A DNA stretch of 64,000 nucleotides from Amoebophrya sp. A120 (taxonomy: Eukaryota > Protista > Dinoflagellata): NCBI GenBank assembly GCA_905178155.1, contig CAJINV010000003.1, positions 3,715,600 to 3,779,599 on the forward strand. Direction: 5' to 3'. Below are positions 153-64,000 of this stretch, one piece after another. Numbering within the stretch: the first letter of the stretch is position 1; each line of letters opens with the position of its first letter. Both the position numbers and the translations under genes were made by a program. The notes beneath the pieces are model-generated. The model was given only the letters and a program-made list of their open reading frames with translations. It had not been told where the DNA came from and did no database searches.

Positions 153-3100
153 ACTGCAGGGGTGCGTTCAAAGCTTCAAAGTTTTCTGAGGAACCCGCGA
201 CGAGGTCCACCACGTCGAGTTTCCAGCGAATCCGTACAAAATCGCAGTATTTCCTCGTGCGCCCCTTTTCGTAGTTCTGCCAGGCACCCACCGGGTAGAA
301 CTTCTCGGTGGGACGAGAGTAGGGCTGAATGCAGGCAAGCGTTATCCCGGTGGCGAGACCGAAGGAAGGCGATTTCTGCTCGTACAGGAAGCGTCCGGGG
401 GAGAGGTCGTGTACTTGGAGCACATAGCTTCCCACGGGACCGCGGACATCATCTCTGGCAAACGGACGCAAGGCAATGACGCGCAACGAGGCCAGGTCGT
501 ATCAAATGTAAAAATGTCTGGGTCTGGAAGAATGCAACTTGTGATGCTGCGTCTGCATTATCCAAAAATCTGTATTGCATGAACAGCAAAAGAGGTCTGA
601 TTTTGGCCACGGCGAGAGGGGATTTCTCATGCGGCATAGGCATCAGAAAGCCCTCACAAGATCTGTGATGGTAGGGCATGCATCGCAGACATCAGGAGTC
701 ATGCAAAATGTGCATGACAAACCTTGCATCCTTCCAGACCCAGACATTTTTGCATTTGATAGGTCGACCGTGTTCGCCAGATTCCGAAGTTGCTTTTCGA
801 GCACACCAGGTTGCTCCTGCTTCTGCTCGTCATCTTCATTTTTACCGATCGCGGGGCTAAATGGACGCCCGTCCTCCACGGAGTTTTCGTCCTCACCCTC
901 ATTTATTCCGGAGCTTGATCCTCCGGGTCGGCGAAGGCCTTGCACCCTGCCAGCGGCATTCGCTGCCCAGTCCGGCAGGAGGTTCAACTTGAAGTGCTTC
1001 AGCCCAACTCGCACAGGAATCTTCAGCACTGGCGGAACACTGCGAATCACGCTGTTCTCGACACTGGGAACCAGTTCGAACCCCGCGGAAACGGAGGCGG
1101 GATTCCTTTTCGTTCGGTCGACTGACGGCTCGAACAGGCGCGCAAGTTGGAACATGCGCGGCTGGTGCAGGGCGGTGAACACGAATTGCGAAAACTCTCT
1201 TGTTGCGCACTTCGCAAGCTTTTCGTCCGGCCCAATCAACAACATCACAAGCGGAAAAAGCTTTGCCGGGACATTCAGAAAGTGCGCCCAGTCCGGGGTC
1301 ACTTGCGCGAGGTTGGTATTTGCTCCCAGTAGAGGACCCTGCCGAATTCTGGTGTTCTGCTGCTTTTTCACGTCGATCGCGCCACGATATACCGCAACGA
1401 GGTACTCCTTGTACAACTGACGCGCGATATCTTCCGCACTGGACTCTTTCATTAATTCAATCTGTTCCGCGGAATGCGCCTTGTGGACCGCCAGCACGCC
1501 CGCGCCGTCTGGAATTCGCGAAGACGATGATGTCTGGCTCAGCCGCCTCGCGGCCGGCCAAAAGTCGGGATCCACTTTGCCCATCTTCGCTTTAGCATCC
1601 TCCAGCCCTTTGTCCAAGCGATTCAAATCCAGGGTTCCTGCTCCGAGGGTGTGAGCAGCGCGGAGCTTTTGCAAACGTTCGGAGCTCTCTGCGGTGATCC
1701 CAGCCGAGTCTCGCAGGGAGGTGAGGTAGGATGTCACTGCTTTGTCCTTGACGCGACGGAGACGGACGGCACGGCCCACCGCACGCAACACCACGGAATG
1801 GTCATTGTCCGAGTCGCATATCCTTCCCGCGGCGGTCAGCTCGGCGACCAGAAACAAACCGGCATCCCAGACTTCGCCCACAGAGGTCGCGTTCCACCAC
1901 GTGTTGGAGATTTGCGCGGAGAACACGTCCGCGAAATTCACAACGGCCTGCCTGTGTAAATCTTGATACATAGCTTGCAAGACGGTTAGGGCGGACCGGA
2001 TGGTCTTTGCCAGCGCGTCCCGGGCGGGGCACCTGTCCCCGTGCACGTTCACGTCGCAGGAAGCTGCAATCGCTTGCAATGATCGCCAGTCCGCGGTCTC
2101 ATGCAACGTCTCGAGAAGAGCTTTCGTGCGCCGGAGCGCTCGCAGCTGGGCTCGAAAATCCCGGTGGAGAAAGAATGTGCCCGGCACATCCACGAGGGCG
2201 TGCGCAGAGAGCAGGCGAACGTTGCGGCAGCTGTAGGCATCCTTCAACCCGTTTCTACCCAAGTCGAAGCACGTCCAGTGTTTCGGCGTGCACGAGAGGT
2301 CGGCCCGGTACTGGCAGAACACCTCGGTTTGTGCATTTTTCACCAAGCCGCAGGAGCCCAATGCTGCTTTGGCTACTGCTTTGGACGGCGAGACGACATC
2401 GTCGGGAACGGTGCACACGGGGAACGACGCAGCGCTCCTAGACGCCCAGTACCGGGCCAGCGACGAAGCGCGCCCGGGACTCGCCGGCCCGAGGGCGTGG
2501 TGGCGGTCGCCTTCGGCGCTGCTCAGCCCAACGCTGACCGGAACACTTTGCCGCCACGACAACGACTGTAGCACTGGCGAGAAGAGGTACGGCAGGGCGA
2601 CGCGGGAAGCTTGCTCCTCGTCCTGACTGGCGGGAAGAACGACGCGCACACCGGTGACGATCATGCCAACAAAATGCAAGTGACAGAGCAGACCATTGGC
2701 GACACGAGGGGAGCTTGTATCTGCCACCTCGTCGAGCGGAGGATTCCACAGCGTGCGCAGCACTAGAGGGCAAATATCGAGCGCCACGTCTCCGCGAGTT
2801 CGCCCCACGTTGGTCAGATCTGTAACCGAGCTGGCGACGGCACGAAGATGATCCTGCTCCGGCTTGGAGATGAAACGAAGCATCCCTGGCAGCTTCCAAG
2901 TAAGCAGCCGATACGCGGCCGGCCCGGCCGCGCAGTTCACAAACGCGAACTGCCGTGCTGCCGCCGCGTTGTTTGGCGGGAAACTCTGGGCGCTCCCGAG
3001 ATCAAGTGCCGCGTCCTGCTGGAACCCGCGCTCCAGCGAGCCGAAATCGTCCACGTACATCAAGGCTCGCGTAATCTGCCACAGCGCATACCTCCGCCGT

Positions 3101-7630: not shown

Positions 7631-7974
7631 GCAGTCTCCCTAGCGGACAGAAAATCCGTCTCTCTGTCCCGCACAGTGAAGACAGCAGAAAAACATGATC
7701 ACTCGTGTGTGAGTGGGTCTTTTATGTAAACATACGAGATCGATACACGACTGCTGGCCCGAGTATCAAATCAAAGCACAACGCAGCGGCAACGGTATTT
7801 CGAGGATACTGTATTGACGACTTTTATTTTAGCGGCAAGCTCCAAAATTCTACACGCGACTCCGCGGTTTTGAAAATAACCCGAAGACTGCTCCCAGCAG
7901 TTTACATACATCAACAGACAACAACAGATTCATCTACTCAGCAGTTTACCACATAAGTATTCACTTCCTTTCTC

Positions 7975-19124: not shown

Positions 19125-22100
19125 CTAAACGATAAAGGAAAGGAATTGCATAAAGCAGCACAAAGCATAGCAATACCGCTTCCCCTTCGTGTGTGGCTCC
19201 GTCCGGTGCTTCCGGTGCGGCTTGAAGCAAATCCACTTCTCGCGGCACGGTCTCAGGATGCACTTCGCGGGTGTCCCGTCCGGTCCCCGTATGGTTTCCA
19301 CAGCGTCCCCCACCATCTGCCCCTCGGTTCCGTACAGGATGACCCTGCCCGCGTTGCAGGTCGGATGCTTCGCGTACTCCAGATCGCAGCCGTAGTCGCC
19401 GAGGCAAACCTATCCTGAAGACAAACGCACCACCCCCAAATTCGGAGAGAACTTGCCATGCTTGATTTCTGCGCACGCGAGCTAGTTTTCCCTGCAGCGG
19501 GGCGACGCAAGCGCTCAGCTTTCCCTCACTGCAGCAGCCAACTTCTTGATGGCGCGCTAATCTGCGCAATAAATGCAAACAGCACGCCACATCTCTGATT
19601 TTTTTGTAGAAACAAAAAAAAGCACTAGCACTGCCAGCGCCACTATATCTGCGCGCACAGGCAACACATACGCAAGCGCCTCCGGTTCTGGGGCGGGGCG
19701 TTTTTTCACTTCCGTAGGAACTGGAAGTTCAAAGTCTGGGGATCGTTGCCCTCGTCGGCATGCCAAGAAGTGACATTATCCAACCCGGTATCATGAGGAA
19801 AGGCCCCACCTCCCCAATCTGCTGCTGCGACCTGTGTCGCAGCGTGCATTCATGTATCTATCCAAGTCATTTTGTGCATTTATGTCGAAAGCTACTCTCC
19901 GCAGTGCAGATGTCGCTGCCGTAGCCGGCAGAGAAAAGGCAAGAGGAATCGCTATACAAGACGCATCAAAGCTATCGGGCCCCCCGATTAAGCCTACTAG
20001 ACAGAGTATGGGGAGGGAGGATTATTCTAGTTCATAGCCAAAGCCGCCCGCACTGAAGTAGATTGCTTCGCCGAGCACTCCCCTAGCGGTCGCGTCCTGC
20101 GCCAACATGCAGCACTGTCGCCACAACTCGCGGACCCACGGGCACTTCAGCTGCTCCTCAAAATCCTCCGCGGGCGTCACCTCCTGCTTGCTGCGCGCCA
20201 GCTCAGCCAGCCCTCCCTTCACGTACCCAAACCGCTTCCAATCCGCATACTGGGAGGAAACGTTCGCCCGGCTGCTCCGCGGCAGGCTTCGCTTCTTCAA
20301 ATGCGCCAGAAGTGTGGCGAAGGTTGGCGTCTCCGGCTGTTCGAAATCTACCACTTCGTAAACCGCCTCTGCGTCGGGTATCAAGGTGAAAACAAGTGCT
20401 GCCCCTACCCCCGAGAACAAAAAAAGTAGTTAGCTCTGTGCAAAAGAAATCCCGCCTTCATGTATTTGTGAACAGAAACACCGCATGACAGACAAATAAC
20501 AGACTGACTTAGAAGGCATCTCTGATAAACGCTCCTGACTGCTGATGTAATTCCCCAACTGAAAGAGCGGAATCGCAAGGATATCCAAAAAGTTTCCCAG
20601 GAGAGGGCCACACTTTTCACCTGCATACTGTACAGCGGTGCCTCTCGGGGGGCTGCCGCCCTTCTGCGCGGGAAGCGGCTGGCTGCGCCGCTGGCGGCGA
20701 CGTCGCGGGTTCTGGCGTCGTAGTGCTGCAGGACCTTGCTCTTCTGCTCCTCCGTCAGTTCGTCCCAGACCTTCTTCTTGAAGTCCGAACAGGACACATT
20801 ATTATTTGTTCCGGCCTATCCACTGCAAATATGTCTGGGTCTGGAAGATTACGAGCCTTGTTGTGCAGGTTCCTCATGACCCATGAAGTCTAGAATGCAG
20901 GACCTAGCGTGACAGGTTATCCCGCATGAGAAAGTCTCTCCGCTTGGTCGAAAGTGGGCAGCTTGTGGCAGTCATGCAACACAGATATTTCCACGGTCCA
21001 GATTTAGCACAACAAGCTGCATGCTTCCAGATCCGGACACTTTTGCACTCGATACCACGACAACCGCCTTTGTCCCGTCCTGAAAAGCACAGCTGCCTTT
21101 GGTGTAGGTTTTGAAGACTTCCATGTGCAGGTAGTACTTGTTCTCCTTAAAGTCCGTAGAGTCGCTGTCGCCCTGCTTCCCACACTGCGCCGATCCTCCC
21201 TGTCCCACCCGCGCTCGCCCTTCGTACACTTTATTTCCGAAGGAGTGCACCATGCAGATTGCGATCCCGTCGTCGTTCCCCCCGAAGTTCTTCCCGTCCT
21301 TGGAGCTCCCCTGCACGATCACGATGTCGCCCTTCTCCAGCCGAAACTCCTGCCAGAAATTCTTCGCCCGCTTCTTCTGGTGGTCCACGGAGTCCTTGTT
21401 CGCCGCGCAGAAGTGCAGCGGAGTCGGCAGCTTCTTCAGCTCCTGCAGCATGCATTCCGCCTGGTGGTCGGATATCCCGTCGCGGTCGAATTTCTTGAAC
21501 AGCACCTCGGGCAATTCGTCCAGCAGTTCGTCTGTGGAGCCATTTGGGTCCGAGATGGGGATAGGGGTCCACCCGACCGCCGATTTGACCCGCTTGCGTC
21601 CTTCGGGGTCAACAACCCAGTCCGCCACTAAAATTGGCTTGGCTGCGTCGTCCGGTGTTTTTTCCCTAAAAGCGACTTCATGACTATGACAGTGCACAAC
21701 TCCCCCTCCCCCTCAGTTGTATAGCATGAACGGCAAAACGAGCATCCGCAAGAATGCCGGTTTTGCATGACAAATTTCCACTGTTCTATTAGGGCTAGCA
21801 GAACTTGCCATTCAAACAGTGCCAAGAGGCACAGCCTGGATTTGGGATTTATAGCATGAACTGCATTACAAGCATCAGCGAGATTGCCCGTTCTGCATGA
21901 CAAATTTCCACTCGAGTGTAGTGCTATCTGGGCTACCAGAACTTGGCATGCAACCAGTGCCAAGAGGCACAGCCTGGAACTGGATTTAAGATTTTGCATA
22001 ACAAATGAGGGGGAGGGGGAGTTGTGCACTCTCGTAATGATTCTTTCGAATCATTCGCACTTTTTCCCAGTCTTCCATCTTTTGCGTAGTTGCTTTTGTC

Positions 22101-24334: not shown

Positions 24335-25209
24335 TGTGCTATTGTTCTCTGCTGTTTACAAACAAGCAAGGAGAAGCTTCTCGGCCATGGGAGTTTCGCT
24401 TGAAGAGCTTGACGCCCAGTTACGCACTTTTTAGTAGATCAATCGTCTTTATCTCGGTGAGGTAAGGCAGTATCATAGAATTATGCCCTCTCTTCGTTAA
24501 AACAGCCGACAACTTCGCTTCCCCCCACTACGTAACACTAGCCCTTTCCATATGAAACGGCGTTCTTCGACATGCCCAGCAACTCTGCTCTCTTTCTTCT
24601 CGCGACCCTCCCGAGTGTTAAAACGAAAGCGGTAGCGGAATGGTGAAAAGACAAAAAGTATAAACGAGCAAGAAATTTTGACGTCTCTTTGTTGTTTCTG
24701 GGCCTGGCCCCTGGGGCCACATTGCCCGCAAGCGATTTGCTTGAATTGATTCTGGTTGAAAAAACAAGTTCGTCAGGAATCCGTTCATCGCAAGCTCCTC
24801 TACAATGAGTCCTATGTTCTTGGGCACCTTTTTCAGCCCTAATTCGATTACAATATCACAGGTACATCCGGGTAGGATCATCACAGGATATATGCTTATC
24901 CTCAAGCAACAGGTGGAAAAATTCTACGGTCTTCAGGAAATCGAAATGGAAACCAAATACTCAACTTCCAGAAAGTCATAAATTTTACTGCGCCCTATCC
25001 AGACAGGAACACTAAAAACACGCTTTCCTTTTTAGAAGTGTGCGTATGATGTTTTTACTCCTCTGCAATTAAAAATGAGTGGTGCGCGTTCGTTCCTTCG
25101 ACAGTGTGTGGTCGATCGCCGCTTCTGGTGCGAAAGGAGAAGTCTTTGCTTGTTCTTTCGTTACACAGCTGCACCGACGCTTGCTCTACTACTTGCCATA
25201 TTGTCATCT

Positions 25210-28200
25210 TCACTTGCAGCAGCACATTTTTCCCTTCTGGTTGGGGTCCTTCAGGTATGCAAGTGCACAACTCCCCCTCCCCCTCGTTTGTATTGGCAAA
25301 ACACCAATGACACATCCTGCCTTTAGGCACTATCTGCATGCCAAATTTTCGCACCTCAAACAGTACTACAATCTGGGCACAGATTTGTCATGCGGAGGCC
25401 ACATATCAGCGGGTGTTTGTGTTGCTGTTCGTGCCATACAAATGAAAGGGAGGGGGAGTTGTGCACTCTCATATGAGGAAGCCCTTGAGTTCCTCCGGGG
25501 TGTACTGCGCACCGCCGCTGCCGCCCTTGGCGTTGAGCTCCTCGTCGGCGACGAAGCACTGCAACGTGGTGTCGACCGCGAGCCCAAACACGTCCATAAA
25601 CAGCTGGGAGACCACGTACCCGATCATGAAGAAGAGCAGCACGCACATAACCGGACTGGAAATGTCGTCCTCGTACATGGCATTCAGCACGAAGTACCCG
25701 ATAATCGTTGTGAAGACCGTGATAAAAATCATCCCGATGGCCCGCACCAGGGAGCCGATCATGGCCAGGATCCCCAGCCGCGCGGCGTTCCGCAGGATCA
25801 GGCAGAACGCGGCCCAGGCGCTGCGGCAGAAGTTCTTCCCCAAAATCGCGATCTGGATGTAGGCGTTTTTGTTCAGAAACTTCACGAACCGCTCGAAGCA
25901 CCGCACCAGGCACTGCAGAAGCGCGGCAATCTTCATCATGATGTAGTTCTTCTGCGCCTGCGCATTCCGCTTCACGTACTCCAGCGCATACTTGATGAAC
26001 TGCACCACAGCGAGAATGAACGCCCCGAAGCACAAAGAGCCTGCATTTGTAGTTTTCAGGCGAAGGATAGTTTCACTGCATCATGCTCGACGTGCGAATC
26101 ATAATTGAAATTTTTAACAATAGAAGGGAAACATTAGGGAAACAAGCAGTGAGACTGACGCGTAGAAAAAAACCGGCCGAGCGTTCATGTCCTTTTCATC
26201 TTGACACATCATTCTTATACCGAAGTGGTATCGGAAGCAGTTTTTGAGGGACGGCAGGACCGCGGCGTTGTAACCTTTGGAGTCGTTGGGGGTGAAATAC
26301 CAGACCGCCACGGCTCCCGCGATGGTGCACTGCCCGAGCGCCACGATCAGAGCGTTGTTCCACAGGAGTGAAAAGAAAACGTAGGCGAACATCGTGTCGA
26401 AGCCGTACCGCGGGGTTGTGCACCGGTAGCACTTGTCCGTGGTGGTGACGGTACCCCCGCTCACAGTGGTCGAGCAAACGCTGTTCGCGACGGGGGTTCG
26501 CGCTCCGGTTGCGTAGTTGAAGGTGTTCGCGACGCCTTCGTCGTAGAAGTAGTCCCCCGTGGGCCACTCATCGTTGCAAGCGCCGGGGGTGTCGGTGCAG
26601 CCGAAGTCCCAAAATTTGCAGTCGTTGGTGCCCGCTGCGCCAACGAGGGTGTAGGGTCCGGACTTGGAGGTGTCGGTGTTGTCGATGCTGGAGAGGACGT
26701 ACAGGGCCACAATCATCCACACCAGAAACCACAGCAGCGCGACCACCGCCTGGATGGGCGGCAGCAGAATGATGGCCTTGGTCTGGTACACGAACTTTGC
26801 GGCGACCTTGTTGACGGCGATCCCCAACTTGATTCGCGTGCACATGCACAGCACGAATAGAAAGTACAGGGCAGCCAGCGCGAGGAAGATGTAGGACATC
26901 ACTTTGTACCTGCAGGTTTGTGAAAATTCTCGAGCAGAACGAAGAGCATGCTGCTCTGTGATTGTCGGTTTCGCTGGAAGACAAGACTGACCCTGTTGAG
27001 CACCAGTGTTCTTGTACTTGTCTATTTTACTTTCCGTTTTCGGATCAAGAAGGTTAAATACGAATCCCGGTCTGCTTCGTCCTTGGTCACGCAATCCTCG
27101 ACGGTGGTCGTGGTGGCGGGAGTGGTCTCGGTTCCGTTGGTAACAACCGCCGCTACATTCATCGTTTTGTCCTCGCAAGACTGCATCGCAAAACCGTAGA
27201 TGCCCGCCCCCAGCAGCAAGCCGAACACGGATCCGATGGCGCCCCAAACGATGTACGCAACGAAGAACCGGAGCAGGATCATGAAGACGAAACCTAGGAG
27301 CCATATGAGTTGTAATTCATTTTGTTACACGACTTCTACAAGGTAAAAACAAGCACCACAAACAAATACAAGTGTACCGGTCGCGTATTAGACTGAACGG
27401 GGCTCATGAAACTGACCTACGAAGCAGTCCGGTGACCTTGTTTATTGCGTTTTCTTCATATCTAACCGACAAGAGTAGGAGCAGAATCTGCTTAAGTAGT
27501 ACCGATGACGAGGGCAAGGATTCCGACTATGACGAAGGCCCAGGCCGCGGTGGAAATGTCTCCGATCATGGTTCCGAAATCGGCGGTGACGTCGCCCATG
27601 GCCGACGATTCCGACATGGAGGAGGCCGCACTCGCAGCCGCGTTGCCCAGTGCCGCGGCGGCCGCAGCGCCCATCTTCATCACGCACATGTTGCCGATCG
27701 CCGAAAATTCCAGCCCGGGGTAGGGCACGCAGTACTGCGGCGCATCGTTGCAGACGGAAAGCGGCAAAGCCTGGTAGCTCAGCATGTCCGCCAACACCGA
27801 GGGCATCGCGTTTTGGGCCCACAATCGCGCAACAATCGGATACCTCATGATTACCACGAGTGGTTGGATTTGGATTTTTATGCACCGGCAGCGCCTTGTT
27901 CTTTGCATGCAGTGAAGTAAGTACGATTATAGGACGGGGTCATTCCTCTCGCGGTCCCTTGGCAGCCACGGACGACCAAGGGAATCATGTCGTGGTGCAG
28001 TGCTTGTCCGAAATCTCTCGCCAAAAATTTTATCTCTAAGAACATGCTACTTTCTTACCAGGAAGTGGTCGGTGCCGGGTGGTACTGGTACGTTCGCGCG
28101 GCTCCGCTCGTCGAATTCGAGCCGACTGCCCCGGCGGTCGCTTTCGCCCCGAGCGCAAACGCGGTCACGGCCTCACAAGAAGTCGCGCAAGAAGCCGTAA

Positions 28201-29607
28201 AAAAGGTTCCCAGCTGCTGCAACATACTGGGGCTCCCGCTGGTCAGCATGCTCGGATCTCCGCTTGCGAGTGCGGTCATTTTGGCTGCCGGATCGTCCCC
28301 GCTCGCGCCCGCGCACATAGCGGTTGCATCCGCCATAGCGCTGGTGTAGGCGGCGCTACTGGGGATACCTTAAGTGCAAAAGTCTATCAGATTGCCTGGT
28401 CGTGTGCCAGCAGAAATTTTCTATAAACACATCATTCCCGATGTTGATCACCAGAAAATCATAGGAGGAAGCCGCTCTTTGTCGTCGACATCTTTAACGC
28501 AGCAGAGCGATACCGTACGTGGTCGCGTACGCAATTTTTGTGCCCTGGTTACAAATATAGTTTCCCGCCCCGACGAAGTCCATCATGGCCTGAGCGTTCA
28601 TCGCAAAAAACTGCTTCTCATATCCTTCAAGCGCCCAGCCTGGCCCGTCTGCTTGGGCGTTCCAAGGATTGAAATTCCCGTTCGAGCCGCAAAAACCGCC
28701 CTTCCAATCGCGCGGAGCAGTCAACCGGACCGGATCCCCGTCACCGCCGATGGCAATCCCCATGATGATGATGAAAACCACCTGGAGGTGTAAATTTTTG
28801 AAATGCATGCCACATGCGCATCGCCTTTCCGGCGCCCGATAAGGAAATATTGGAAGCGTCTTCTTGCAAATGCGTGTTGATAATTGTTCACCTAGAAAAT
28901 CAATGCGTGACCACCTCCCTTAGTACCCAGTGCGCCGCGAAGGCGATGAGACAGAAGATATCCGTGCATCCTCGGTTTTTCACCGGCCCGTTGGAGCAGT
29001 CGTTTTCCCCGCCCTTTTATCAAATGTAAAAGTGTCTGGGTCTGGAAGATTGCAACTTGTTATGCTAAATCTGCAGCATGCAAAAATCTGTGCTGCATGA
29101 TTACCAAAAGTCGTCCAATTTTGACCAAGTCGGGAGGTAGTTTCTCATGCAGGATAGGCATTAGAAAGGTCTCGCAGAGTCTCAATCTGTCATGCTAGGT
29201 CCTGCATTCCAGACCTCATGGGTCATGGAAAAGCAGCATGACAAATCGCGCATTCTTCCAGACCCAGACATTTTTTCATTTGATACCTTTTCTAAGGGCT
29301 TGTCTTCGGCCGGGTTGGCGTCCGCAGTCGGCTTTTCGTCTATGACCCGCTCAAACGTTACAATCTCAAATGTTACAATAGAATCTGGATTTTGTGTTGC
29401 ATGATGAGCATGACAGACCCGCACTGCGTTCCACTTTCTGCATTACAAATTTCGCCAGATTCTACTGCGGTTTGGGACTCCTGAACTTGTCATGCGCAAT
29501 GCCGTGGGAGTAGGCTAGGCCATGCACCTTTTGCATCACAGATTTTCATATTCTATTGTAACAGTTGAGATTGTAACAGCTGAGCGGGTTATATCGTCCT
29601 CCGACAT
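25210..29607 (-). CDS. Choline transporter-like (CTL/SLC44) protein; six GT-AG introns plus three introners
   Basis: Spliced model MSEDEKPT..EKGGENDCSNGPVKNRGCTDIFC.., CTIAGAVAVWYF, RYHFGSLCFGAFIL, KFLNKNAYIQIAILGKNFCRSA, DTTLQCFVADEE, ending KGFLKDPNQKGKMCCCK* (stop 25210-25212). Confidence 0.93.
25256..25473. mobile_element. Introner family B, copy B2 (218 bp)
   Basis: TATGCAAGTGCACAACTCCCCCTCCC / GGGAGGGGGAGTTGTGCACTCTCATA. TSD TCAGG/TGAGG (4 of 5). Lies near the C-terminus of the CTL gene. Confidence 0.92.
29018..29285. mobile_element. Introner family A, copy A4 (268 bp)
   Basis: Family A TIRs. TSD CCTTT at 29013-29017 and 29286-29290. Removal joins the 5' exon in frame to the CTL GP.KNRGCTD exon. 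Confidence 0.95.
29341..29593. mobile_element. Introner family C (253 bp)
   Basis: ~44-bp TIRs TATGACCCGCTCAAACGTTACAATCTCAAATGTTACAATAGAAT / ATTCTATTGTAACAGTTGAGATTGTAACAGCTGAGCGGGTTATA. TSD TCGTC. Inserted in codon 5 of the CTL gene. Confidence 0.95.
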
Positions 29608-30506
29608 CTTGCCCGCCCCTGGAACAAAACTACACCTGCGCCAAGAAGTACCACTGTACCACTCAGTCTCTCCTACTGTCAGTTTTTACACAGAGACAGC
29701 AAGTGAGGAAAAAATAATTCAGCAATAGAAAAGGAATGCGTATCCTCTGTAGGAAAGAACCGGAGACGCAAAGTGCGGACTCGCACTGCAATCAATCTCG
29801 TGCGGAGCAGATAGTTTTTTCCCTCACTCTCATTCATTACACGTCTTCCAGTTGCTTTTCTGAATGATTTCAGCAAGATGACCGCCATGTTGTATCCTGA
29901 GTGTTCACGTTCTAGAAAAAACCCCTCCTCTCTTTCACTCCTGTGACCCTGAATCAGGTTGATTCCAATACCAATGAACAAGAGGAATACGACACAAGGG
30001 CTTGCTCATTCGGAAAATACAGGTTTTTTTTTCGACGTTCGAAGCCGCATGATTGCAAATCGGTATTCTCGTACAATAAAAGCTTCTGCTCAGTAGCAGC
30101 AAGGCTACTGTAAAAGCAAAGTTTTCCGGGTATTCTCAACGGCATCCAATAGTAAGTACCTCAACAACTGTCTCTTCCGTGACAAAGCCACAGAATGAAT
30201 TTACCTTTTAATACGTTTACGCGTTGTACATAAACTCTCACAGAGACTCGAAAGCTCACAGTATCATCATTCAACGGAATAGTTCACAGTTCGCTACAAA
30301 GTTCAAGTTCAGTTTGCGAAAAATACGATTGACCTGTATTCCTACGTCGATATAATTGCCCATAGAATCACGTTTCTTGCTGCCAGCCGCTGCTTCCCGA
30401 TGATGCGTCAGAAGTCCAGCCCTTGCAAGATCACGACTGGAACAATCCGCGCTTTTGGCGCAAGACCGCAACACCCGAAGAGACGAGCAGCCGGGTACTC
30501 ACTAAT

Positions 30507-33500
30507 TTACACCGCCCGATCAAGCATCGGAATGCCTAAGACCTTTTCACGCACCCGCGCAAAGGCGTCTCCGTGTCCCCCGTCGTGAAAGCGCTTGTCC
30601 CCGAGCGAAAAGTCGTCGAAGTACAGCGGGCTTTCGTACACGATCTTAGGTGCTTCAAACAGCTTGGGCTGAGGATTGAAGTGCATTTTGGGCATGATCA
30701 AGAAGGGCTTGGTCCCAGACAGTTGAGAGGAGCGTCGCGCGGCCCCATTGCTGCTCATGCTCATCCCGCCGAACCCGGTCGAGTTCCTCGTGCTGCTGGT
30801 CGGCAGGTTTGGATTGCCCAGTACCAGCTTCTGCGCGGCGCTGCTTCTTCGCGCGGACAGCTTTGGTTTGTTGTTCCCCTCCTTGTTCTCACCATTCGCG
30901 TTCCCCGAGACGCGGTTCATCTGCACATTCATATCGCTGTTCCGGTTGTGCAGGTTTGTCTCGCTGTTTCGCACGTAACGGGACAGCGCGTCGTCCTCTT
31001 GATACGCCAGCATGGATGGGCTGCTCGGCGTTACCGATGCGAATTCCTCGTTTTCCGGAAGCTGTTGTACTAGCAACCCAGTGGGGGACGAGGGCGCGCC
31101 GGAATGGTTGCTTCCCGTGGAATTCCGCCGTCTGGGCGGTTGCTGCGGCCCGGCATTGGACGGCGCGGAGGGGGTGTTACTGTTGCTATTACTACCGCCC
31201 CGGGAGAAGTAGCTGGATATTCGCTCGAAAATCCCGGCGGGCGGCGCCGCGGGCTCCTCCTCGTCTTCCTCGGGAATGCTTTTATGATTATAAAACTGCT
31301 CGCCGGGCATCGCCGGAATGTTGTCCGGTGCGGATATCCGGGCCAGCGCTTCCAGCCCGAAGTCCGGCTCGTCCTCCTCTTCGTAGATGGTTTGCTCCTG
31401 CAAGGACCCCCGCCCGAAGCACGGGTTGTTGCTTTGCTGCTCCGTCGGGCTGCTGTGCTCGATCCGGAGCAGGTCGTGCTGAAATTGCTGTCGCAGGATA
31501 TTCTTGTCCTGCTCCGACATGCGCGCGACCACGTGCTCAAACGTCGACTGGGTGTCGCCTCCGCCCGCGTCGTCAGCTGATAGATGATATGGTTTATTGC
31601 ACAGTATCAAATATGAAAGAACTTCGCAACAAATGAATCGCAATGGCAAGAACCGCGGTACAACCTTACTTCCTCAAGAATGCCTGCAGTAGACACAAAT
31701 AGAACCAATACCTCCCTGCGTCGTCTCTCGTTGCGACGATGTTGCGGACGACCTACGGTTGTATTGGGAGCTGTTCTATCAAATGTAAAAATGTCTGGGT
31801 CTGGAAAAGTGCGCGATTTGTCATGCAGCTTTTCCATGACCCATGAGCCCAGGAATGCGGGACCTAGCATGACAGATTCTGTGCGATCTCTCTCATGCCT
31901 ATCCTGCATGACAAACTCGCTCCCGACTTGGTCAAAACTGGACGACTTTTGGTAATCATGCAACACAGATTTTTGCATGCTTCAGATTTAGCATGACAAG
32001 TTGCATTCTTCCAGACCCAGACACTTTTACATTTGATATGTTCCGCCCGAGGTACTGGGACTGGCCCAGACGGGACGCGCGGTCAGACGGTCTGGAGTAT
32101 CCTATGTAAAAACATCCCCACCCCAGAGTTGTCATGCAGATTTTATTTTTTTGATTGGGCCCCGCTCTGTTGACGCATATAAATTCATCACTAAAACTAG
32201 GAGGCCGGTGTGCGTTACTTAACATGTGAAGCAGCTCTACGAATTCACCTGCCTGCCGCAGCAGGTCAAACAGGGCCGACACCTTTCACACAGTTAAGCA
32301 GTGCGCGTGTATGCGTGCACTTTTCATCTTGTTTTGATATTCTTACTATCTGCTCTTGTCCTCTGCTCCAGCACATTGCACTGCGCGTCTTGTTCTCGCT
32401 TCGCTTGCGTTTTCCCCCTCCTCCCCCGCGTGCGTGTCGTATGTCCGCGCTAGCAGGCAGATCTTCGCTTTTCATAGTGTTTTCTTCTAAACTTAGTGTC
32501 TGTTAGTCTGTATCTAGTTGCTAGTCTGTGCTGAAAAACTGAAATAAAGCGAAGCGGAAATCTTAAAGAGCTTACGCTTGACTTCAAATCGTGCTAGCAT
32601 ATTGTTTCTATTTCTCATCCCCACAACCCACGACCAGCCTCTGCTGGAAAAAAAGTTCCCTGGTGTGTTTTTTAATAGTCACAGCGGGGGGGGGGAGACC
32701 ACATTGGTCTCCCCCCGCACGAAATTTGTGATGCGCATCCCTATGATGGGCATTTCCAGTCGTGCAGATTTGCGATGACAAGAACATTTGTGATGCGCAT
32801 CCCTATGATGGGCATTTCCAGTCGTGTTTTGGAGTTTGTAATGCTGTAAACAGGATACGCATCTCGATTTGTGATGCGGCTGTCCCTGCTAACCTGCACT
32901 ACACTACGGGCTGCAACTTGTCATGCGTGGCGTCCAAACCTCCAGGATCTGTGTTGCAGAGATCCCAACTTAACTATGGTGTGGGGACATTTTTACTCAG
33001 GATATGGAGGAGGAGGCATTCGAGACGGAGCTGCGATTCGTGAAGACCGCGTCCGACTTCGGCAGTTGGGAGACGCGCTTGTGCAGTAAATTCATGTCGA
33101 TATCGTAGTCTTTTGTGATAACGCGGTTCGTTTCCACGGCCGGTCCGCCAGCACTACTCCCGCCGCCGGCACCACCGCCTACACTGCTGGCCGTATCCGA
33201 GGCGGCTGCGGAACCGTAGGAATCCCGTTTGTGGCTCTCCGCGCTCTTCCGGGCTTGACCTGCAGGTTCAGGTCGGTAGGTAGAAAAGCGGGATTATATT
33301 AAAACTCTTGTGGATGAAATATCTGCGCGAATTGCCTGTAATATTCTCCGCGCGCGCACGACGCAGAACTCCTGCGTTCTTGGTCTTTCGATATCTTAAT
33401 ATCATCTTGGCAAAGATAAGATGGATCACTCTGCGGCAAGAAATGCCGAAGCTAGCAAACGCTTTGAACGTGCCAAAATGAAAAAGCGCAAGCAGTACTT

Positions 33501-35272
33501 TTGTCTGACGTGTTGCTGATGCGGTCCACATAGGGTTTCTCCGCCTCGACTTGAAGCGACTTTCGTCGCGTTTCGTGCTCGCCGGACTGGTTGTACCAGC
33601 GGTAGCCAACCTCTGGCCCCTTCCCAATTTTGTCCCGGTGGGCGTGGGAGCTCGCGATGCTCTCACCGACATCTTCCACCAGCTGCTGCCGCGTACCGTC
33701 GACGGAATTCATCGACCTTCGGGCAACCCGCGTTTTGCAACGGATCATCAGCTCCGAGCCGTGCCCGATGCCTGGTTTGTGAACAAAAAAGTGTGCTGCG
33801 ATAATTAAAAAATGTCGCCTGCAAATAAAGATAAACCTTACCCTGGGTTCTTCGCAACGAAGTGTGGCAAGACAAAATTTCTTAAGTAGCAACATTCTTT
33901 TGTTGGAGTGAAAGTGAAACCACTCCTATGAGTATACCAGCCCTCCGCAGCGACGCGATGGGATTTGTGATCGGAATTTTGTTGTACCACAACTTCTGGT
34001 CTTTGACAGGTATTCCCGTCAGCTCTTGTATGCGCAGCTTTAAACTATCCTGCTGCATCAGCTGCATCAGATAGTCTTGTTCGGCGGCCGTGTCTGTTTG
34101 GAAATAAATGGTTTTTCTTTCTGGCTGATTTGCTCACACAACTTTGTGTCGTCGTGATCAAGAAAAAATTGTCAACAAGCAGAGGTGATTTATTCGACAT
34201 TCATTCTACTAGCCTACCTGTTTTGTTCTCCGCATTCTCTTCTTCCCGCTCTCCAAAAATCTCAGTGAACCGGTTGCGCTGGGCATTGGCGGGAAGCGCA
34301 CCTCCAATCATGAGCTCGCGGTGGACCCAAAATGCCAGACCTGTTGTGGCGTTTTATGTCCGACAATTCATTGGAGGCGACGCAATTTCAACCGAATAAA
34401 GAACGGTTGCGAAAGAAATCTCAACTATACGCAAACACCGCAAGAAACACAGGCAAAACGGTTGGGCAAAATGATGAAAATACGGTCCCCACTGAGCGGG
34501 AACTTGACGTAGATGCGAATGAGGTCGTCCGGCGCGCAGCAATTTCGCTTTCCCGTGGCGTGGCAGCTGATTGCATCGTGGCGCTCGACCTGGCTCAAGG
34601 GGAGTCCAAGGTGGGGACGCTTGCCGCTGGACAGGGTCGTCACTGTGCCGTTCCGCCCCGTCGAAGTGGCGCTCGTTCGCGTGCCGACACCGTACCTCGA
34701 CAGATAAACAAAAGCGAAGTAGATACCACTACCTATGCGGACGATTTAAGGCCGACGCGCTTGGACGTCGTCGTCGAAAAATAAAATTTTTCAGTACTAC
34801 TGTCGTGTAAAAAAATTTTCAAAAGAAAAATACGAGCCAGTCCATTCGGAATGTCTCGTGGTCTCCGTTTGCTTGGTGGCGTCGACCTCCGTATCAAAAG
34901 GAAAAATCCCCCCTCCCCATATCGAAACGAAGTCTCTGATGCTGGATTTCCGCACACAGGGCAGATTTGTCTTGCAGTGGAGGACTGTAGGCATACGCCA
35001 AGCCGCAGCCGAGAGGTTTTGACGTAGGCGCCTAGCATGGCGAACGTGTATGCTCTAAGCCCAACAGCATCACAAACCGCCTGCAAAATGTGGGGCGCTC
35101 CGTGGTCTTGCCTTCTTGCAAGCCAGACAGGATTTGAGGCCCCAAATGCGCATCACAAATTTTCAGACGGATACGTTTTCAAAATGGGGAGAGGGGATTT
35201 TTTCGTACGATACTCCGACTGCCGTGTCTGAATGTAGTCCAGCAGCTGGTCTTCCGATTTCAGTTTCTCCAT
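30507..35272 (-). CDS. Multi-exon protein with a ubiquitin-like domain and a long disordered C-terminus; three introners
   Basis: ATG at 35272 (MEKLKSED). UBL-like segments IRIYVKFPLSGDRIFI, LKLRIQELTGIPVKDQKLWYNKIPI..SLRRAGI and GHGSELMI. In-frame joins across D1 (QSE-VDAT), F1 (SSS-RPSD) and A5 (GRN-SSQY). Some exon borders are uncertain. Confidence 0.65.
31777..32038. mobile_element. Introner family A, copy A5 (262 bp), close inverted relative of A4
   Basis: Family A TIRs. TSD TGTTC at 31772-31776 and 32039-32043. Confidence 0.95.
32098..33004. mobile_element. Introner family F, copy F1 (907 bp; carries a ~0.6-kb internal insertion)
   Basis: TATCCTATGTAAAAACATCCCCACCCCAGAGTT / AACTATGGTGTGGGGACATTTTTACTCAGGATA. 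TSD TGGAG. Segments 32098-32143 and 32772-33004 align with the reverse complement of F2. Confidence 0.92.
34892..35212. mobile_element. Introner family D, copy D1 (321 bp)
   Basis: TATCAAAAGGAAAAATCCCCCCTCCCCAT / ATGGGGAGAGGGGATTTTTTCGTACGATA. TSD CTCCG. Confidence 0.93.
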
Positions 35273-35875: not shown

Positions 35876-38679
35876 TCATGTTGTTTGCAGCAGCGGGCCA
35901 TTGGTTCTCTCGACCGGGGTAGGGGGCTTTCGAATTTCCGGCCGTCTTTCCGACGTCTTGATCAGGGTTTTGCTCGGACTGTTGTTCACCGCAGACTGTC
36001 CCTTCGACGTGCTTCGGCTTTCCACCGTTATGTCCGAAGCCTGGGAAGCTGTTGTCGACGCGCCATCGTTCCTGCTGGTAGCCATAGCAGGTGGCAGCTT
36101 CCCCCGATCGCTTCCACCTCGATCCGGAGGCACAAAATTTCCGCTCCCCGCCGAACTGCGTGACGCTTTCGCCGCAGCTGGATTTTTGTGTAGTATCTAT
36201 TTGCCATTGCTTATCCGCGGAGCCGCGCTTGTCCCTACTTTTTCCATCAAAAACATTTCGAACCCAGATCCCAATGATGTATCGTGTGTGAAGACTGGAG
36301 AAACAAGCTATTCTAGAAATCTATACCTTGCTTTCCCGCTGGCGTCGGCGGCTGGGACATGCGTTTCGGCCCCGCCGCGCGTTTCCTAGGCCCGGTGGAC
36401 GAGGAACTCGAGGCTGGCGCGCCTTCGTCACCCGTGCCCGCCGCGGCCCACGTACCAATGGCCTGGTTCAGCACGAGCCAGGGGGTGGGCAGGGCGGCCT
36501 TCATCAACGACTCCCGCTCCACGTTCGAGCACCCGATCACCGTGCACACGGCGGGAATCAGGGACTGCGCCTTCATGTCGCCCTTCTGCGCGTACTCGCA
36601 GTACTTGTACACCACCTCGCGCAGGTAGGCCTTGTCCACGTTCGCATCGGACATGATCTCCAGCTCCCGTATCCTCTTCTTCATGCCCACCTGCTCGTCG
36701 TTGTTCTTGCGCATCTTCTGCTCCATCTCCCGCACCTGGAACCGCAGCTTCCGCGTCTCTTCGCCCTGCTCCCGGAGAATCAGGTCGCGGTTGGCCTGTT
36801 GTTGACAAGTGGGTGGGTAGGGATAATTTTTGCTTGTTTTTATTTATGATTTGAACTCCACGACCGGTTGCTCTTTTGCTGTAAAAAGACAAGGATCCAC
36901 GCTCACTGTGTACTATAAAGAATTTCCACTTCTCACAAGATGAACCCGTGCCAATACACTAATTGCGACCACAAACCTGCAATTCTGCGGCCTTGGTGAT
37001 CATGCGGCTTGTGTCGAGCTCCTCTTCCATTTTCGCGATGTCATGCTCCATCTTTGACATTTGTTTCTCTTTTGTGCTCAGCTGCTCGGTATACTGGCGC
37101 TTTTCCTCGGCGTGCTGGCTTTTCACGGACTGTAGCATGCGCTGTCCGAGCTCTAGCTCCGCGCGGTACGATCCCTGTTTTTAAGGTATCCATCGCGAAA
37201 GGTTTAGAATTCATAGCATGCACAAAAAGCATCAATACTGGCAGTTTAAAAACATCTTCGTTCCCGGCACCAGCACATAAGAAGATATTACGCGTGAAAG
37301 TAGATTTTGGCCCCGTGGAAGGTGAGTAAACATACTATAAGTACGTCGATCTGGTCGCACTTCGACGTGAGCGCCAAGTTTTCCTGCTGCAGCTGTTGAA
37401 TCCTCTGCTCGAGGTCGCGCACGCGCCCCTGGTCGACTCCAGAAGCAACTACACCGGGCGCTGCTCCCTGATCCGTCGCACCACCACTGGAGGACGATCC
37501 CGCGCCGCCGGATTGCATTTTGCTCGTCAGCTGCTGCGCTCGGTTGTTGTTCTGCGCCCGAAGGTTTTGGATTTGCAACTGCAAATCCTTGTTTTCCGCC
37601 TTCAGGGACCGGTTCTGGCTCTCCATCGCTTTCACGTTTTGGTTCGTGTTCTGCATGTTCTGCTGTGCTACAATGTTGGCCTCCTGCAACGACCGGTTCT
37701 GGAGTTCCTCCAACATGATCCACTTCGCGCGGAGCTGCGCCTCCAGAGTGGCCGTCTGGTCCGAAAGCATCTGCTCGGCCTCATTGGGAAAGACCAATCG
37801 CACAAAGTCGCGTAACACGTTCAGCTCGCGGTCCTTCCCCTCCAAGGACTCAATCCCCGGCGTAAGCAGCTCGAAATTTATCTGGGATAGAACAACAATA
37901 GTTGTAGGGAACAAGCACAACTTCAAGAACAAAATGATCTTCGGACAGAAGCAGAACGAACACGAAATTTGTCCTGTGCACCAGTCGCAAAATAAAGCAT
38001 TTATGCAACGACCCAGAGAGCAAAACCACAGAGTAGATCCATGATGATCTTGGGCCTCTTAGTACCGGCGTCTCCTGCGCTGCCGCCTCTTCGAACGCAG
38101 TTTCGGGATCCGGCAGCAGCAGTTTGCAAAACCGCAAAAAGCTTGCGCGATCTTCATGCAATATCTTGTTGTATGGATGTGTCAGGATCGAAATCGACAA
38201 AGTCGGAAAATTTGTGACGCATAAAATGCAGGGCACTTGAGGCCTGTATTGGGGAGCAGGCAAATGAGACCGATTGTGAGCCTGTTTAGGGGTATGCAAT
38301 GTGCTGCAAGAGTAGCATGACAGGAGCAGTCTTCTTTGCCCAAACAGCATGACAGGCTGGATTTGGGTGCTGCCGAAATTTGTCATGCGCCACTAACAAA
38401 CTGAGGATCTAACTGGTATCGATTTTATGCATCACAAGTTTTTCGACTTTGTCAATTTCGATTCTGACACTTCCCTATGTTGAAGCGCAGTAGTTTTACG
38501 TACCGGTCCTCGATTTTGTCTAGCTTGGCCTCCACCGTCTTCAGTTCCTTGTCTTTTTTCTTGATCAGCGCAATCAGGGTCTCGCGTGGAACTTGGCTCG
38601 AGGAGCTACTCGACGCAGCACCATCTCCGCTGCCAGTCGTGGCGCTCGGCTGGCTGCTCGAGCCCGCAGCGTCCGACAT
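35876..38679 (-). CDS. GRIP-domain coiled-coil protein (golgin-like); last exon uncertain (stop at 36313 or 35876)
   Basis: Coiled-coil exons joined by GT-AG introns and element G (LRFN-KILHEDR). C-terminal VDKAYLREVVYKY..SLIPAVCTVIGCSNVERESL fits the GRIP pattern. Confidence 0.8.
38172..38477. mobile_element. Introner family G (306 bp)
   Basis: ~56-bp TIRs beginning TATGGATGTGTCAGGATCGAAATCGACAAAGTCG and ending CGACTTTGTCAATTTCGATTCTGACACTTCCCTA. TSD TGTTG. Confidence 0.94.
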
Positions 38680-41874: not shown

Positions 41875-44800
41875 CTAATCCCCTTGGGAGTCGTCAATGT
41901 AGTGCAGCGTGTAGAGAATTATGCAGCGCCAGAGCTTGATGCAAAACTTTTGCGTCTCGTCGTCGAGAAATTTGTCCAGCTCCGCCAGCATGTCGTCGGT
42001 CGTCATTTTTTGCGTCTTCACCTTCTGGACCACCGAGTAAATGTAGTCAATCACAGACGCCTCCTCTTTGTCGTACAGCTCTTTCACCTTCTTCGTGATC
42101 CACGGCTTGACCTGTGAGAATAAAATGAACAGATTACACCAACTGCATTTCGACTTTAGTATAGGAGTGGGACTCATTTCATCTACTTCCTTTCCAAAAA
42201 AAAATGAAGACTACAACAGGTCGGCCGAGCCAATCAAGTCCTCGTCGCTAAAGCAGTGCGCTAAAGTAGTGCGCTAAAGTAGTGCGCTAAAGTAGTGCGC
42301 TAAAGCAGTGCGCTAAAGCAGTGCGCGAAAGTGCGCCAAAGTAGTGCGCTAAAGTAGTGCGCTAAAGCAGCGTGCTAAAGTAGTGCGCTAAAGCAGCGCG
42401 CTAAAGCAGTGCGCTAAAGCAGTGCGCTAAAGCAGTGCGCTAAAGCAGTACTAAAGCCGTGCTACCAGCATGCGAGGCAACCTAGCTGCGAAGCACTCTG
42501 GCTAGCCAGAGCGAAGCACTTTGGCCGCAAGCGTCGAAAGCAATTTATGCGTAAATAGACCTATACCTTTAACTCCAGTAATTCGTTTTTGTCGATGATT
42601 CCCCAATTGATCGGGTAGTCAAAGACTGCGTCGCCCTCGGGAATGGTTTGGATCAAAGCCTGCAGATCTTTCTGCGGGCGCGCCCTCGACGGTTCATCCC
42701 GATCGCCCCGTCTATTGCTGCGCTCCCGGCTGTGCCGTCGCCGTCCCCTCCGATCGCCACTCGGCGACCGCCGCCGGCGCCGCAGGTCGCTTGTGCCCGT
42801 CAACCGTTCGACGGCTTCTCGCGTTTTGCGCTCCTCGTCTGCTTTCAGTCGCTGTTCCAACTCCAGCTGTTCCTTCCGAATCGCTTCCTTCTCCCGCTCG
42901 GCGTTCTCCTGTCGTTCCTTTTCCAGGTCCTCCTCGTCCTCGTCGAGTTCGCGTTTCATGTGCTGCTTCATTCGGGCTTCCAGCCCGGGGAAGGCCCGTC
43001 GCCGCGACCGCCGGGGCCGGGGGGCGCGAGCCAGGTACAGGTCCGTACGAACCTGGTCCTTTGCGAGCAGCTCCGCTCGACGATCCGACATCCGCATGTC
43101 CGCTGTAGTTGATTTTGGGTGTGGTTTTTTCTCATTTCCGGGGCTTGTTGCTTTGTTCAAGTTCATCTTGCTGAATCTAGGCACTCAATAACAATTGTAC
43201 AAAGACGTGTGTCCGCAGTACTTGTAAAGAATCAAGCAGTGATTTATACCGTCAGCTATTCTGGTGACCGTTCCCGAGGACGACTCCGTGACCTGGAGCC
43301 GCTTCAGCTCGTCGCGGAATTCCTGGAGCTTTTCTTGCTCGCGTCTCTCGAAATTTCGAACAGCGGTGTCGTCTTCCCGACGTTGCCGTCGCTCCTCTTC
43401 CGCGATGCGTTCCTCGCGGTCTCGCTCCTGGAAACAGTTGTCGATCAGAAGGGTGAGCAGGAGTACTAGACCCCATTTCTTATTCTAGAGAACACCCGGC
43501 ATGTAGTCTGCTGGGATTGGAAAAGCACAAGCAGCTCACGACAAAAAAATAAAACCACGATCATGTTGATGTCCTGTATACGCATGCAAGGTCTTTTCTT
43601 GCGAAGAAGTATCGGTAGTGTAGTACCTTCCGGTGTGGCCTTCGGTTTTCGGGTTTTTTCACGGGGTCTCGTTCCTCCGGCTCTTTCTCCTTGTCTTTCT
43701 TAGCCGCTTCGTCCCGCTTCCCCTTTGACTCGGCCAGTTCCTTTCTGATGCGGGCCAGGTCGTCCGCTCTCCTCTTCTCGTCCTCCAACTTGCGCTTACG
43801 CTCCTCGAGGGCGCGCTCCTGCTCCTGAATCTTGCGCTCCCGCTCCTTCCGCTGCTCGGGAGTGACCGTCTGCAAAAATTGCTCGTACTCCCGGTCTATC
43901 AACTGCAAATATGTCTGGGTCTGGGAGATTGCGAGATTTGTCATGCTAGTCTGGCATGACTCGAGAATCTGTGTTGCATAGGCACAAAAAGGCCCTCTTG
44001 CCTGTCATGCAAAAACGCAGTTTGCCATGCGGAATACGTAAGACATGGCTGCCAAAGAATTTGTCATGCGTAGCTGCGTATTGCAGTGCGTCTATCATTA
44101 ACTTTTAGCATTACAAGTTTCCAGACCTAGACATTTTTGCATTTGATACGGTCTGCGGCCGCAATATTCTCTAGTAATGCCGTGCGAACCGTGTCCATTT
44201 CGCTCGCCAGCAAAGAGTCCACCTCGTCGTCAGCCATTGGAATCATCTCGATATCTGACCCATCGCTTCCCTCCTGAGTTTGATGTTTTTGGGTAAAGTT
44301 GAGGCTAGTTAGTAGTAAAACACGATAGGGACGGCAATTATCAGCGGTGAACATTCGTTTCCCTGATATCTGGATACTTTACGCCGTAGTACGGGAGTTT
44401 TCGAACAAAACTCTATGAATGAAGCTGAGTTGTACCTCTAGCCCCGAACAACCAAAGCGGATATTTTTCAAAAAAACCTTCTGTACCTTGACCCGGGTCT
44501 TTTGGCAGAGGTTGGGGTTGGCTTCCCGGAATTTTGTGCGCTCCTCCGCTCGGAACTCTTCCAAATCCGCCTGCATCTCGGCGGAGACTTTGAGCATCAA
44601 AGACTGGTTCAAAATTTTCATGGCGGGCAGCCCTTCTTTTTCGACGTCCCCGTTGAGAAAGGTCATCACCGCGTTCACCTCCCGTATGTTGCCGAAGTGG
44701 CAAAACGCGAACTTTGCGGGCACGTTCGTGACCGGGTCGGTCTGCCGGTCCCATTTCACGATCCGGCCGCAGCAGCCGAAGATGGCCCGGAGGGACTCGT

Positions 44801-62435: not shown

Positions 62436-64000
62436 ATGTCAACTATTCCGGGAGACGGACGGCAGCATCAGCATGATCTTGCAGGCGACCCTCCAACTCA
62501 CATCTCTGCTTTCAGCCTGGTTGTGCTGTTCGCGCTGTGGGTGTTTGCGCACGCATGGGGTTGCTTATTCCGTTACGTGATGAAGACACCCCCACTGCTG
62601 GGCTACCTCCTGGGGGGTATTTGTTTCCGCAACGTGGGCGGTGCCGCACTGCATTTCGCACAGGCGAAGGTGAGGCAGTCACTAATACATGACAACAGCA
62701 GGACAACGACCAAACCTGGCGGCCCCCCAGCGGCCGGAGATGCGGAACAAGCGAGCCAAAACCTCACTTTGATTCCCGCAGATATTTCGTCCCTCGTGCG
62801 CACGCTCGGGCTCGCCACTATTCTCATGATTGCGGGATGCGAGATCGACTACCAGAAAATCCGGCGGATGGGCGGCATGTGTCTGCGGCTGACCGTGCTT
62901 CCCGGCGTGAGCGAGGCCTTTGCCGTGGCTCTCGTATCCATGTATGTGTTTGGGTTTTCCCTCGCCTGGGGCCTCGTGCTGGGCTTTATCCTGGGCGCCG
63001 TGTCCCCTGCCGTGGTGTGCGGCGGTATGTTTGCGCTGCAAAAGCGCGGGTACGGTGTCGCGAAGGCGATTCCCTCTCTGGTCGTGTGCGCCGTATCAAA
63101 TGCAAAAATTTCTGGGTCTGGAAGATTGCGAGATTTGTTATGCTGATCTGGCATGGCTCTTGAATCTGTATTGCGTGGCCACAAACAACCTCTCTCGCCT
63201 GTCATGCAAAAACGCAGTTTCTCATGCGGAATACGCAGCACCGAAGCACGAAGCAACTTGTCATGCTTGGCGGCGCATTACAGTGCATTTGTATATTGAC
63301 TGACTTGCATCACAAGTTTCCAGACCCAGACATTTTTGCATTTCATACGCCGCGAGCTTGGACGACGTGGTTGCCATTTATCAAATGCAAAAATGTCTGG
63401 GTCTGCAAGAATGCAACTTGTGATGCTGCATTTGGATGTCTAAAAGATTTGTGTTGCATGAGCAGCAAAAGGAGTCTCACTTTTGCTACGCGGACAGGGC
63501 ATTTGTCATGCGGAATAGGCATCAAGAATCCCTGAAAAAACCTGTGATGCTAGGGCATGCATCACAGACATCATGGCTCATGCAAACCGTGCGTGGCATG
63601 TCTCAAAGTCAAAACCCTCCAGACCCAGACATTTTTGCATTTTATACCATTTCCGGGTTCACCACCTCGCTCGGCGTCGCCATGAGTGACATCATGCCCG
63701 CGGACGAGAGAAACCTTTTGCGGACCCTGCTGGGGCTGCCGCACGTACCTGCGCATCCCAGTTCGCACTTCTACGCGATGCTGCACGGGCCAACCAATTT
63801 GCTGCTCGGCGCGGTGCTGGGCGTCACTTTAGGTGCGGCGTTCGCGAAGCTTTGCCAAACGGACGCAGCGACGGCATCTTCATCATCATCCCGAGGGGGT
63901 CATGCAACCTCTAGTTCAACTAGCTCCTTTTGGGGTAGCGGTTCTTTCTTCGGCCGCAAGCTCCTGGCTGCCCACGCGCTCGCCCGCCGAAACGAACTGC
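62436..64000 (+). CDS. Na+/H+ antiporter, SLC9B/NHA-type (partial, runs off the window)
   Basis: PPLLGYLLGG, RLTVLPGVSEA, LGFILGAVSPAVV and GYGVAKAIPSLV. The conserved AASLDDVVAISGF motif appears only after removing elements A7 and A8. Confidence 0.9.
63094..63347. mobile_element. Introner family A, copy A7 (254 bp)
   Basis: Family A TIRs. TSD CGCCG at 63089-63093 and 63348-63352. Confidence 0.95.
63379..63646. mobile_element. Introner family A, copy A8 (268 bp)
   Basis: Family A TIRs. TSD CCATT at 63374-63378 and 63647-63651. Confidence 0.95.

Follow-up and report, generated by a model that had tools for sequence, protein, structure and literature searches.

The paper that described the non-canonical introns of Amoebophrya (Farhat 2021, PMC7789003) left the question of how tens of thousands of them are removed. 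The sequence analysed here is a 64,000-nt stretch of Amoebophrya sp. A120 DNA (contig CAJINV010000003.1, positions 3,715,600 to 3,779,599; hereafter the window). Two closely related elements, A4 and A5, lie in opposite orientations within genes of the same strand, and the first-pass annotation of the window had proposed that such elements are removed irrespective of their orientation. The two elements and their hosts are the following:

29018..29285: A4 introner, 268 bp, with a long terminal inverted repeat and TAT…ATA ends; CCTTT (AAAGG in sense) stands on both sides as a 5-bp duplication, at 29013-29017 and 29286-29290.
31777..32038: A5 introner, 262 bp, related to A4 as its reverse complement; TGTTC (GAACA in sense) is duplicated, at 31772-31776 and 32039-32043.
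24811..29607, minus strand: host of A4, B and C2, a choline-transporter-like gene (SLC44/CTL; PF04515), with its start codon at 29607 and RNA contig pieces from 24811.
30507..35272, minus strand: host of A5, F and D, a gene of 771 aa in which one stretch is weakly ubiquitin-like.

Aligned end to end as reverse complements, A4 and A5 matched at 89.9% over 268 columns (242 identities, 20 mismatches, 6 gaps), as had been claimed. When 45 nt were trimmed from each end, the interiors agreed far better as reverse complements (157/172) than on the same strand (102/153, with 44 gaps); thus, the opposite orientation is real, and the inverted repeats do not account for it. Each element begins with TAT, ends with ATA and carries a perfect 5-bp direct repeat on both sides, and 106 copies cluster with the two. 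Features of miniature inverted-repeat transposable elements (MITEs) are present, namely short length, inverted ends, a target duplication of fixed length and many copies. As delimited here, the window contains 17 such elements of several families, plus one truncated by the window start.

Evidence for removal came from contigs of one sample and one study, which carry only a tentative RNA label, were assigned to RNA because GT-AG introns are skipped in them and report the presence of a joined form rather than its efficiency; the results on joints rest on the 15 joints listed out of 27. The A4 joint (29012>29286) skips 273 nt in X1 and X4, two of the three runs, and the A5 joint (31771>32039) skips 267 nt in X1, X2 and X4, all three of them. 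Three other elements of the same hosts were also skipped by RNA joints:

29341..29593: B introner, 253 bp, of a family other than A; duplication TCGTC; 258 nt skipped in X1 and X4 (2/3 runs).
32098..33004: F-copy introner, 907 bp, of which about 580 nt are an additional insert; duplication TGGAG; 912 nt skipped in X1, X2 and X4 (3/3 runs).
34892..35212: D-copy introner, 321 bp; duplication CTCCG; 326 nt, which is not a multiple of 3, skipped in X1, X2 and X4 (3/3 runs).

At A4, A5, B, F and D alike, the removed stretch was exactly the element plus 5 nt. Among the joints listed, X2 showed none at A4 or B, where its contig seems to end early. In the contigs that lack A4 and A5, one and six introns, respectively, that read CT..AC on the plus strand are skipped as well; therefore, both hosts are minus-strand genes, as the first-pass annotation had stated, and the contigs are spliced RNA. 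A raw RNA run, X8, yielded 160 partial reads, 158 of them at only 90-95% likeness.

The annotated A120 proteins of both hosts already omit A4 and A5. One exon of the SLC44/CTL host is 100% identical to the annotated Amoebophrya sp. A120 protein P0003, and the 771-aa host has an exon with 100% identity to A120 protein P0001, whose sequence crosses the A5, F and D junctions; the match of the latter host to PF00240 (E=0.007) is under the cut-off. A4 and B sit within the first codons of the SLC44/CTL gene, and the 771-aa gene is the next one upstream. The A25 orthologue of the SLC44/CTL host has the same EKPLEKGGENDCS spanning the A4 junction, at which EKPLEKGGENDCSNGPVKN is shared and continuous.

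Is the use of both orientations general? Four further copies in the window bear on this question:

500..761: A2, family A, oriented as A4; host predicted minus.
63379..63646: A8, family A, oriented on the plus strand as A2 is; its host, a Na/H exchanger gene, is predicted plus.
43897..44148: A6, 252 bp, from a sister family that shares the ends of family A; predicted host strand minus.
63094-63347: A7, a relative of A6, lying the opposite way round relative to its own host.

The earlier claim that A2 and A8 share their plus-strand orientation while their hosts oppose each other was borne out by a plus/plus alignment at 79.9% and by a coding model, which called the A2 host minus (score 23.0 vs 6.1) and the A8 host plus (25.7 vs 6.3); the exon upstream in the A8 host matches the Na/H exchanger family PF00999. 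The model had been trained on open reading frames (ORFs) of the window outside 19.5-36.5 kb. It called all eight elements inside that interval minus, some by small margins, and six of them lie in genes whose strand is shown by RNA. Within loci, its strand calls agreed in 147 of 148 pairs.

The orientation count per family that the first-pass annotation had suggested was run on at least 150 loci, found by a scan with the exact end pattern of family A; the 80 listed share one assembly prefix and may not be of the same strain as the window, and no copy in the outside loci duplicated a window copy. These loci held 235 elements, of which 201 had a perfect 5-bp duplication, 28 one mismatch and 6 two, the maximum of the finder. 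Element orientation was read from trimmed interiors, with no inconsistent edge, and the margin for a strand call was passed by 154 elements, the other 81 being left uncalled. Family A used both orientations on predicted host strands (35:30, with 65 of 101 copies called). The corresponding counts were 14:7 for the sister family (of 40 copies), 7:7 for F (of 17), 2:4 for E (of 12) and 1:8 for D (of 10), and with the window copies included they became 38:32 for A (p 0.55), 4:8 for D and 7:9 for F. Copies thus lie both ways about equally on predicted host strands. The single orientation noted earlier for the D (3/3) and F (2/2) copies holds inside the window but not outside it, where F is balanced and the three D copies of the window belong to the minority orientation.

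The reading frame, chosen independently for each side, continued after removal of the element length plus 5 nt in 91 of 96 scorable cases, among them 53 of 54 whose lengths are not a multiple of three; for family A, continuity was found in 24/24 and 16/17 copies of the two orientations. This test is partly circular, since the set had been pre-selected for coding score across the junction. On such sequence evidence, the copies at the outside loci would be removed as well.

We then considered where the removal signal lies. The sense-strand duplication displayed no base preference (n=140; G at the last position in 34%, AG at positions 3-4 in 13/140), and a GT-AG reading was available in some register in 8/140 sense versus 6/140 antisense cases. 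Across 170 elements, 109 tests for an asymmetry between the 5' and 3' sides found none (smallest p 0.035). The terminal stem folds on both strands of A4 and A5, with z from -8.9 to -10.7 against 40 shuffles, and a search of Rfam with positions 28900-33100 gave no match. Even orientation, an indifferent target and the lack of 5'/3' asymmetry together indicate that the signal is confined to the elements' mirror-image ends, its likely location. With both window copies skipped exactly in RNA contigs, both orientations in use by family A outside the window and no strand-specific feature found, the proposal of orientation-independent removal was upheld. The exclusion of the spliceosome that it implied was not, on two grounds. 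An inverted repeat presents the same end on either strand, so a donor-like or branch-like signal within it is orientation-free by construction. Moreover, spliceosomal introners in both orientations have been reported elsewhere, and both-orientation use therefore does not speak against the spliceosome. Transposon-derived introns flanked by target duplications occur in either orientation in Polarella glacialis and Aureococcus anophagefferens (bioRxiv 10.1101/2020.10.14.339549; PMC10228655). According to the portions of those papers covered here, their GT/GC/GA donors and AG acceptors are either carried by the element or recruited, particular targets are needed and one orientation is favoured; the present elements also use both orientations, but their target bases are unconstrained and family A is unbiased.

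The position of the cut can be narrowed with the same material. A perfect duplication leaves six equivalent cuts, a choice that mismatched duplications reduce. The window copies concerned are:

25256..25473: C2 introner, 218 bp, in the minus-strand SLC44/CTL host; its imperfect duplication (sense CCTCA/CCTGA) limits the cut to two registers.
21685..22036: C1, 352 bp, a relative of C2 in opposite orientation, with an imperfect duplication (sense ATCAT/GTCAT); host strand by the coding model.
20817..21054: A3, a 238-bp family-A copy oriented as A5, whose flanks agree at 2/5 positions only.

At C2, contig pieces 24811-25250 and 25474-26039 directly follow each other in the record, both in X1 and in X3, and four or five bases of the upstream duplication copy are kept. 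At C1, a contig piece ends at 21679, the record lengths fit a 357-nt skip, and at least one base of the upstream copy is kept. At A3, one contig piece begins at 21055, on one side of the joint only, and the 5' cut is placed as in C2. The 5' cut falls one base before UAU or directly at UAU in both informative copies (2/2); with four duplication bases kept, the intron begins N-TAT. Copies with mismatched duplications could reveal the true cut genome-wide, which ordinary RNA alignments cannot fix. Duplication mismatches, counted by sense position, numbered 14, 5, 6, 7 and 5. They were commonest at the first position (14/37), although not significantly (p 0.10 overall; 0.06 vs position 5).

A4 and A5 are the published A120 introners (Farhat 2021) and thus belong to a known system. 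The portions of PMC7789003 covered here describe, in what the host proteins identify as the same organism, repeated non-canonical introns with inverted repeats, short direct repeats and a predicted hairpin. The ends of A4 and A5, TAT CAAATGT AAAA and TAT CAAATGA AAAA, fit the definition given there (TAT, 7 variable nt and at least three A), and CCTTT and TGTTC agree with the border direct repeat of 3-5 nt; RNA support as introns, membership in a repeated family, the hairpin and the location in A120 genes are likewise shared. The published repeats are of 8-20 nt and 3-5 nt, whereas in the families examined here the inverted repeats are longer and the duplication is strictly 5 bp. The same portions propose a hairpin and an altered splicing mechanism, leave the cut position open and report that no cognate transposase was found in A120. 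They contain no statement that we could find on element orientation; the passages on orientation, as well as 3/3 hits in the supplement, concern genes. Nor did we find a report on the orientation of Amoebophrya introners in the literature, subscription papers and preprint supplements being outside the scope of that search. As regards search design elsewhere, Gozashti 2022 allowed opposite-orientation matches, and the 2025 pipeline required the expected orientation, in the parts of the descriptions covered. The balance of orientations, the indifference to target bases and the smaller choice of cut positions, none of which we found in print, are useful constraints, and A4 and A5 constitute a natural matched pair.

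We lean towards the explanation that one small inverted-repeat element, likely of non-autonomous DNA transposon origin, is present in opposite orientations as A4 and A5, and that a relaxed spliceosome reading the ends most likely removes both copies; for the reading of mirror-image ends by such a spliceosome, considered by itself, the chances appear about even. Insertion would occur at the DNA level via a putative transposase, blind to the direction of transcription. Given the identical ends, either strand would begin with UAU and finish with AUA. A cut one base before UAU would produce N-UAU, equal to positions +2 to +4 of host GUAU donors, and the 3' cut would fall four bases past AUA. The terminal stem of about 35-45 bp would keep the ends together and could substitute for an AG acceptor.

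A relaxed spliceosome is preferred because the N-TAT start resembles host donors, because of the small nuclear RNAs (snRNAs) and protein set reported in A120, and because of a precedent in Fritillaria. Among the canonical introns examined, 8/8 start with GTA and 5/8 with GTAT. A120 is reported to have U2, U4, U5 and U6, with only 6 of 89 spliceosomal proteins missing and U1 undetected (the relevant parts of PMC7789003). The introns of Fritillaria borealis, as far as described in the parts covered of PMC11282704 and PMC13326754, share inverted repeats, a target duplication and the absence of GT-AG; however, they prefer AG-AC/AG-AT ends in a species that retains U1, whereas in A120 the ends are free and U1 is reported as undetected. 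The use of both orientations, the indifference to target and the lack of asymmetry also argue against spread via reverse splicing, since this process would keep one orientation.

Several observations weigh against our preferred explanation. A yUnAy-type branch motif at the terminal ATA occurred in 98/170 sense versus 104/170 antisense cases, without a sense excess, and the canonical introns lacked a fixed A at -7. G·U and A·C mismatches within the first 30 bp of the sense stem numbered 154 and 162; as G·U is not favoured, the stem shows no sign of selection on RNA pairing. The register of the cut is based on two copies, and at A3, with one side of the joint displayed, removal of length+2 by a GT-AG cut would fit just as well. 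A 211-nt family is the only skewed one (10:1, with 11 called of 15; p 0.012, uncorrected, six families tested); its loci are L001, L013, L022, L023, L055, L061, L062, L063, L075, L076 and L080. Finally, we simulated gap sliding at 140 sites, applying the rule by which aligners slide gaps. Because this simulation alone put 8/9 of the A120 motifs of Farhat Table S4 in the top 16 classes, those motifs (all nine with T at +2) were rejected as independent support for the cut position.

A wider generalisation, which we advance tentatively, is that an A120 pathway recognises transposon ends as such: any TAT…ATA inverted-repeat insert, whichever way it points and whatever its target sequence, would be cut out with exactly one 5-nt duplication, without GT, AG, U1 or a strand-specific branch point, and possibly without the spliceosome. 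If this were true, insertions into exons would be nearly neutral, and the tens of thousands of new introns would be explained.

The main rival keeps the same elements and the same orientation independence but makes removal independent of the spliceosome, with a nuclease and a ligase that would recognise the terminal stem, the cuts being made at set distances from it. We regard it as possible, if doubtful. Any terminal dinucleotides are tolerated, the 109 tests yielded no strand-specific signal, strong stems form on both strands, and the reported failure to detect U1 in A120 (PMC7789003, in the parts covered) fits a process of this kind. Euglenid nonconventional introns, for which removal of this kind is suspected, offer a model: in the parts of PMC11282704 covered here, they share inverted ends, a terminal stem, junction repeats, non-canonical borders and a probable MITE origin with the present elements, and they are excised as circles; they have CAG/CTG near their ends, however, whereas the elements studied here end in TAT(C/G)…ATA and lack CAG/CTG. 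Against this rival, the Fritillaria spliceosome removes transposon-derived non-canonical introns, the element starts look like host GTAT donors, and the stem has no excess of G·U over A·C. Moreover, no such nuclease or ligase was found, although no search aimed at one was made.

Reverse-transcriptase template switching at such repeats is a known artefact, and the joined contigs could in principle stem from switches between the 5-nt repeats over the hairpin; the mRNA would then retain the element and the protein would need ribosome hopping. A strong stem between direct repeats is the classic, orientation-free substrate, the evidence comes from cDNA-derived contigs only, and one whole codon always lies within the 5-nt repeat. 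Nevertheless, we consider this very improbable: the joined form was the main contig in 3/3 runs for A5, F and D, including the 912-nt skip, copies with mismatched repeats were skipped as well, and A4, A5, B, F or D, if kept in the transcript, would introduce stops in all three frames, in a gene conserved with A25.

Equally hard to credit is excision from DNA in some life stage, in the manner of ciliate internal eliminated sequences, with the RNA arising from element-free templates. The element plus one duplication is indeed the product of precise transposon excision, a strand-blind process. Contigs of X5, taken as DNA for their even depth over introns, nevertheless enter A4, A5 and D unbroken from unique sequence (25438-29043, 29569-31799 and 32977-34914); as the joints of X5 were listed in part, a minority excised form is possible. 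That each copy is an ordinary spliceosomal intron which gained canonical sites by chance from the target duplication, its orientation being incidental, is largely refuted and most unlikely: one cut register of A4 reads GT-AG and A3 can be read so too, but A5, B, F and D are removed without any GT-AG register, A5 has no GC-AG or GA-AG register either, and GT-AG is scarcely more available in sense than in antisense.

Some minor features of the elements were also recorded. A short motif, (T/C)TGTNATGC, occurs inside unrelated families, with 29 hits in one direction and 26 in the other, almost all of them within elements (for example at 29057, 29236, 31818, 32129 and 58174), and is a candidate for a common transposase-binding site across families. 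The extra insert of the F copy (window 32144-32723, about 580 nt) is absent from other F copies, which have 14 letters there in other contigs; it contains a G-run/C-run hairpin near its right end and is removed along with its host element. Within C1, a unit of about 130-138 nt is duplicated in tandem at 21720-21988. An inverted-repeat element of another family at 38171-38478 may lie outside coding sequence, as no ORF across it scores as coding. Tandem arrays with 96-nt and 13-nt units, unrelated to the introners, occupy window positions 4400-7700 and 42220-42484.

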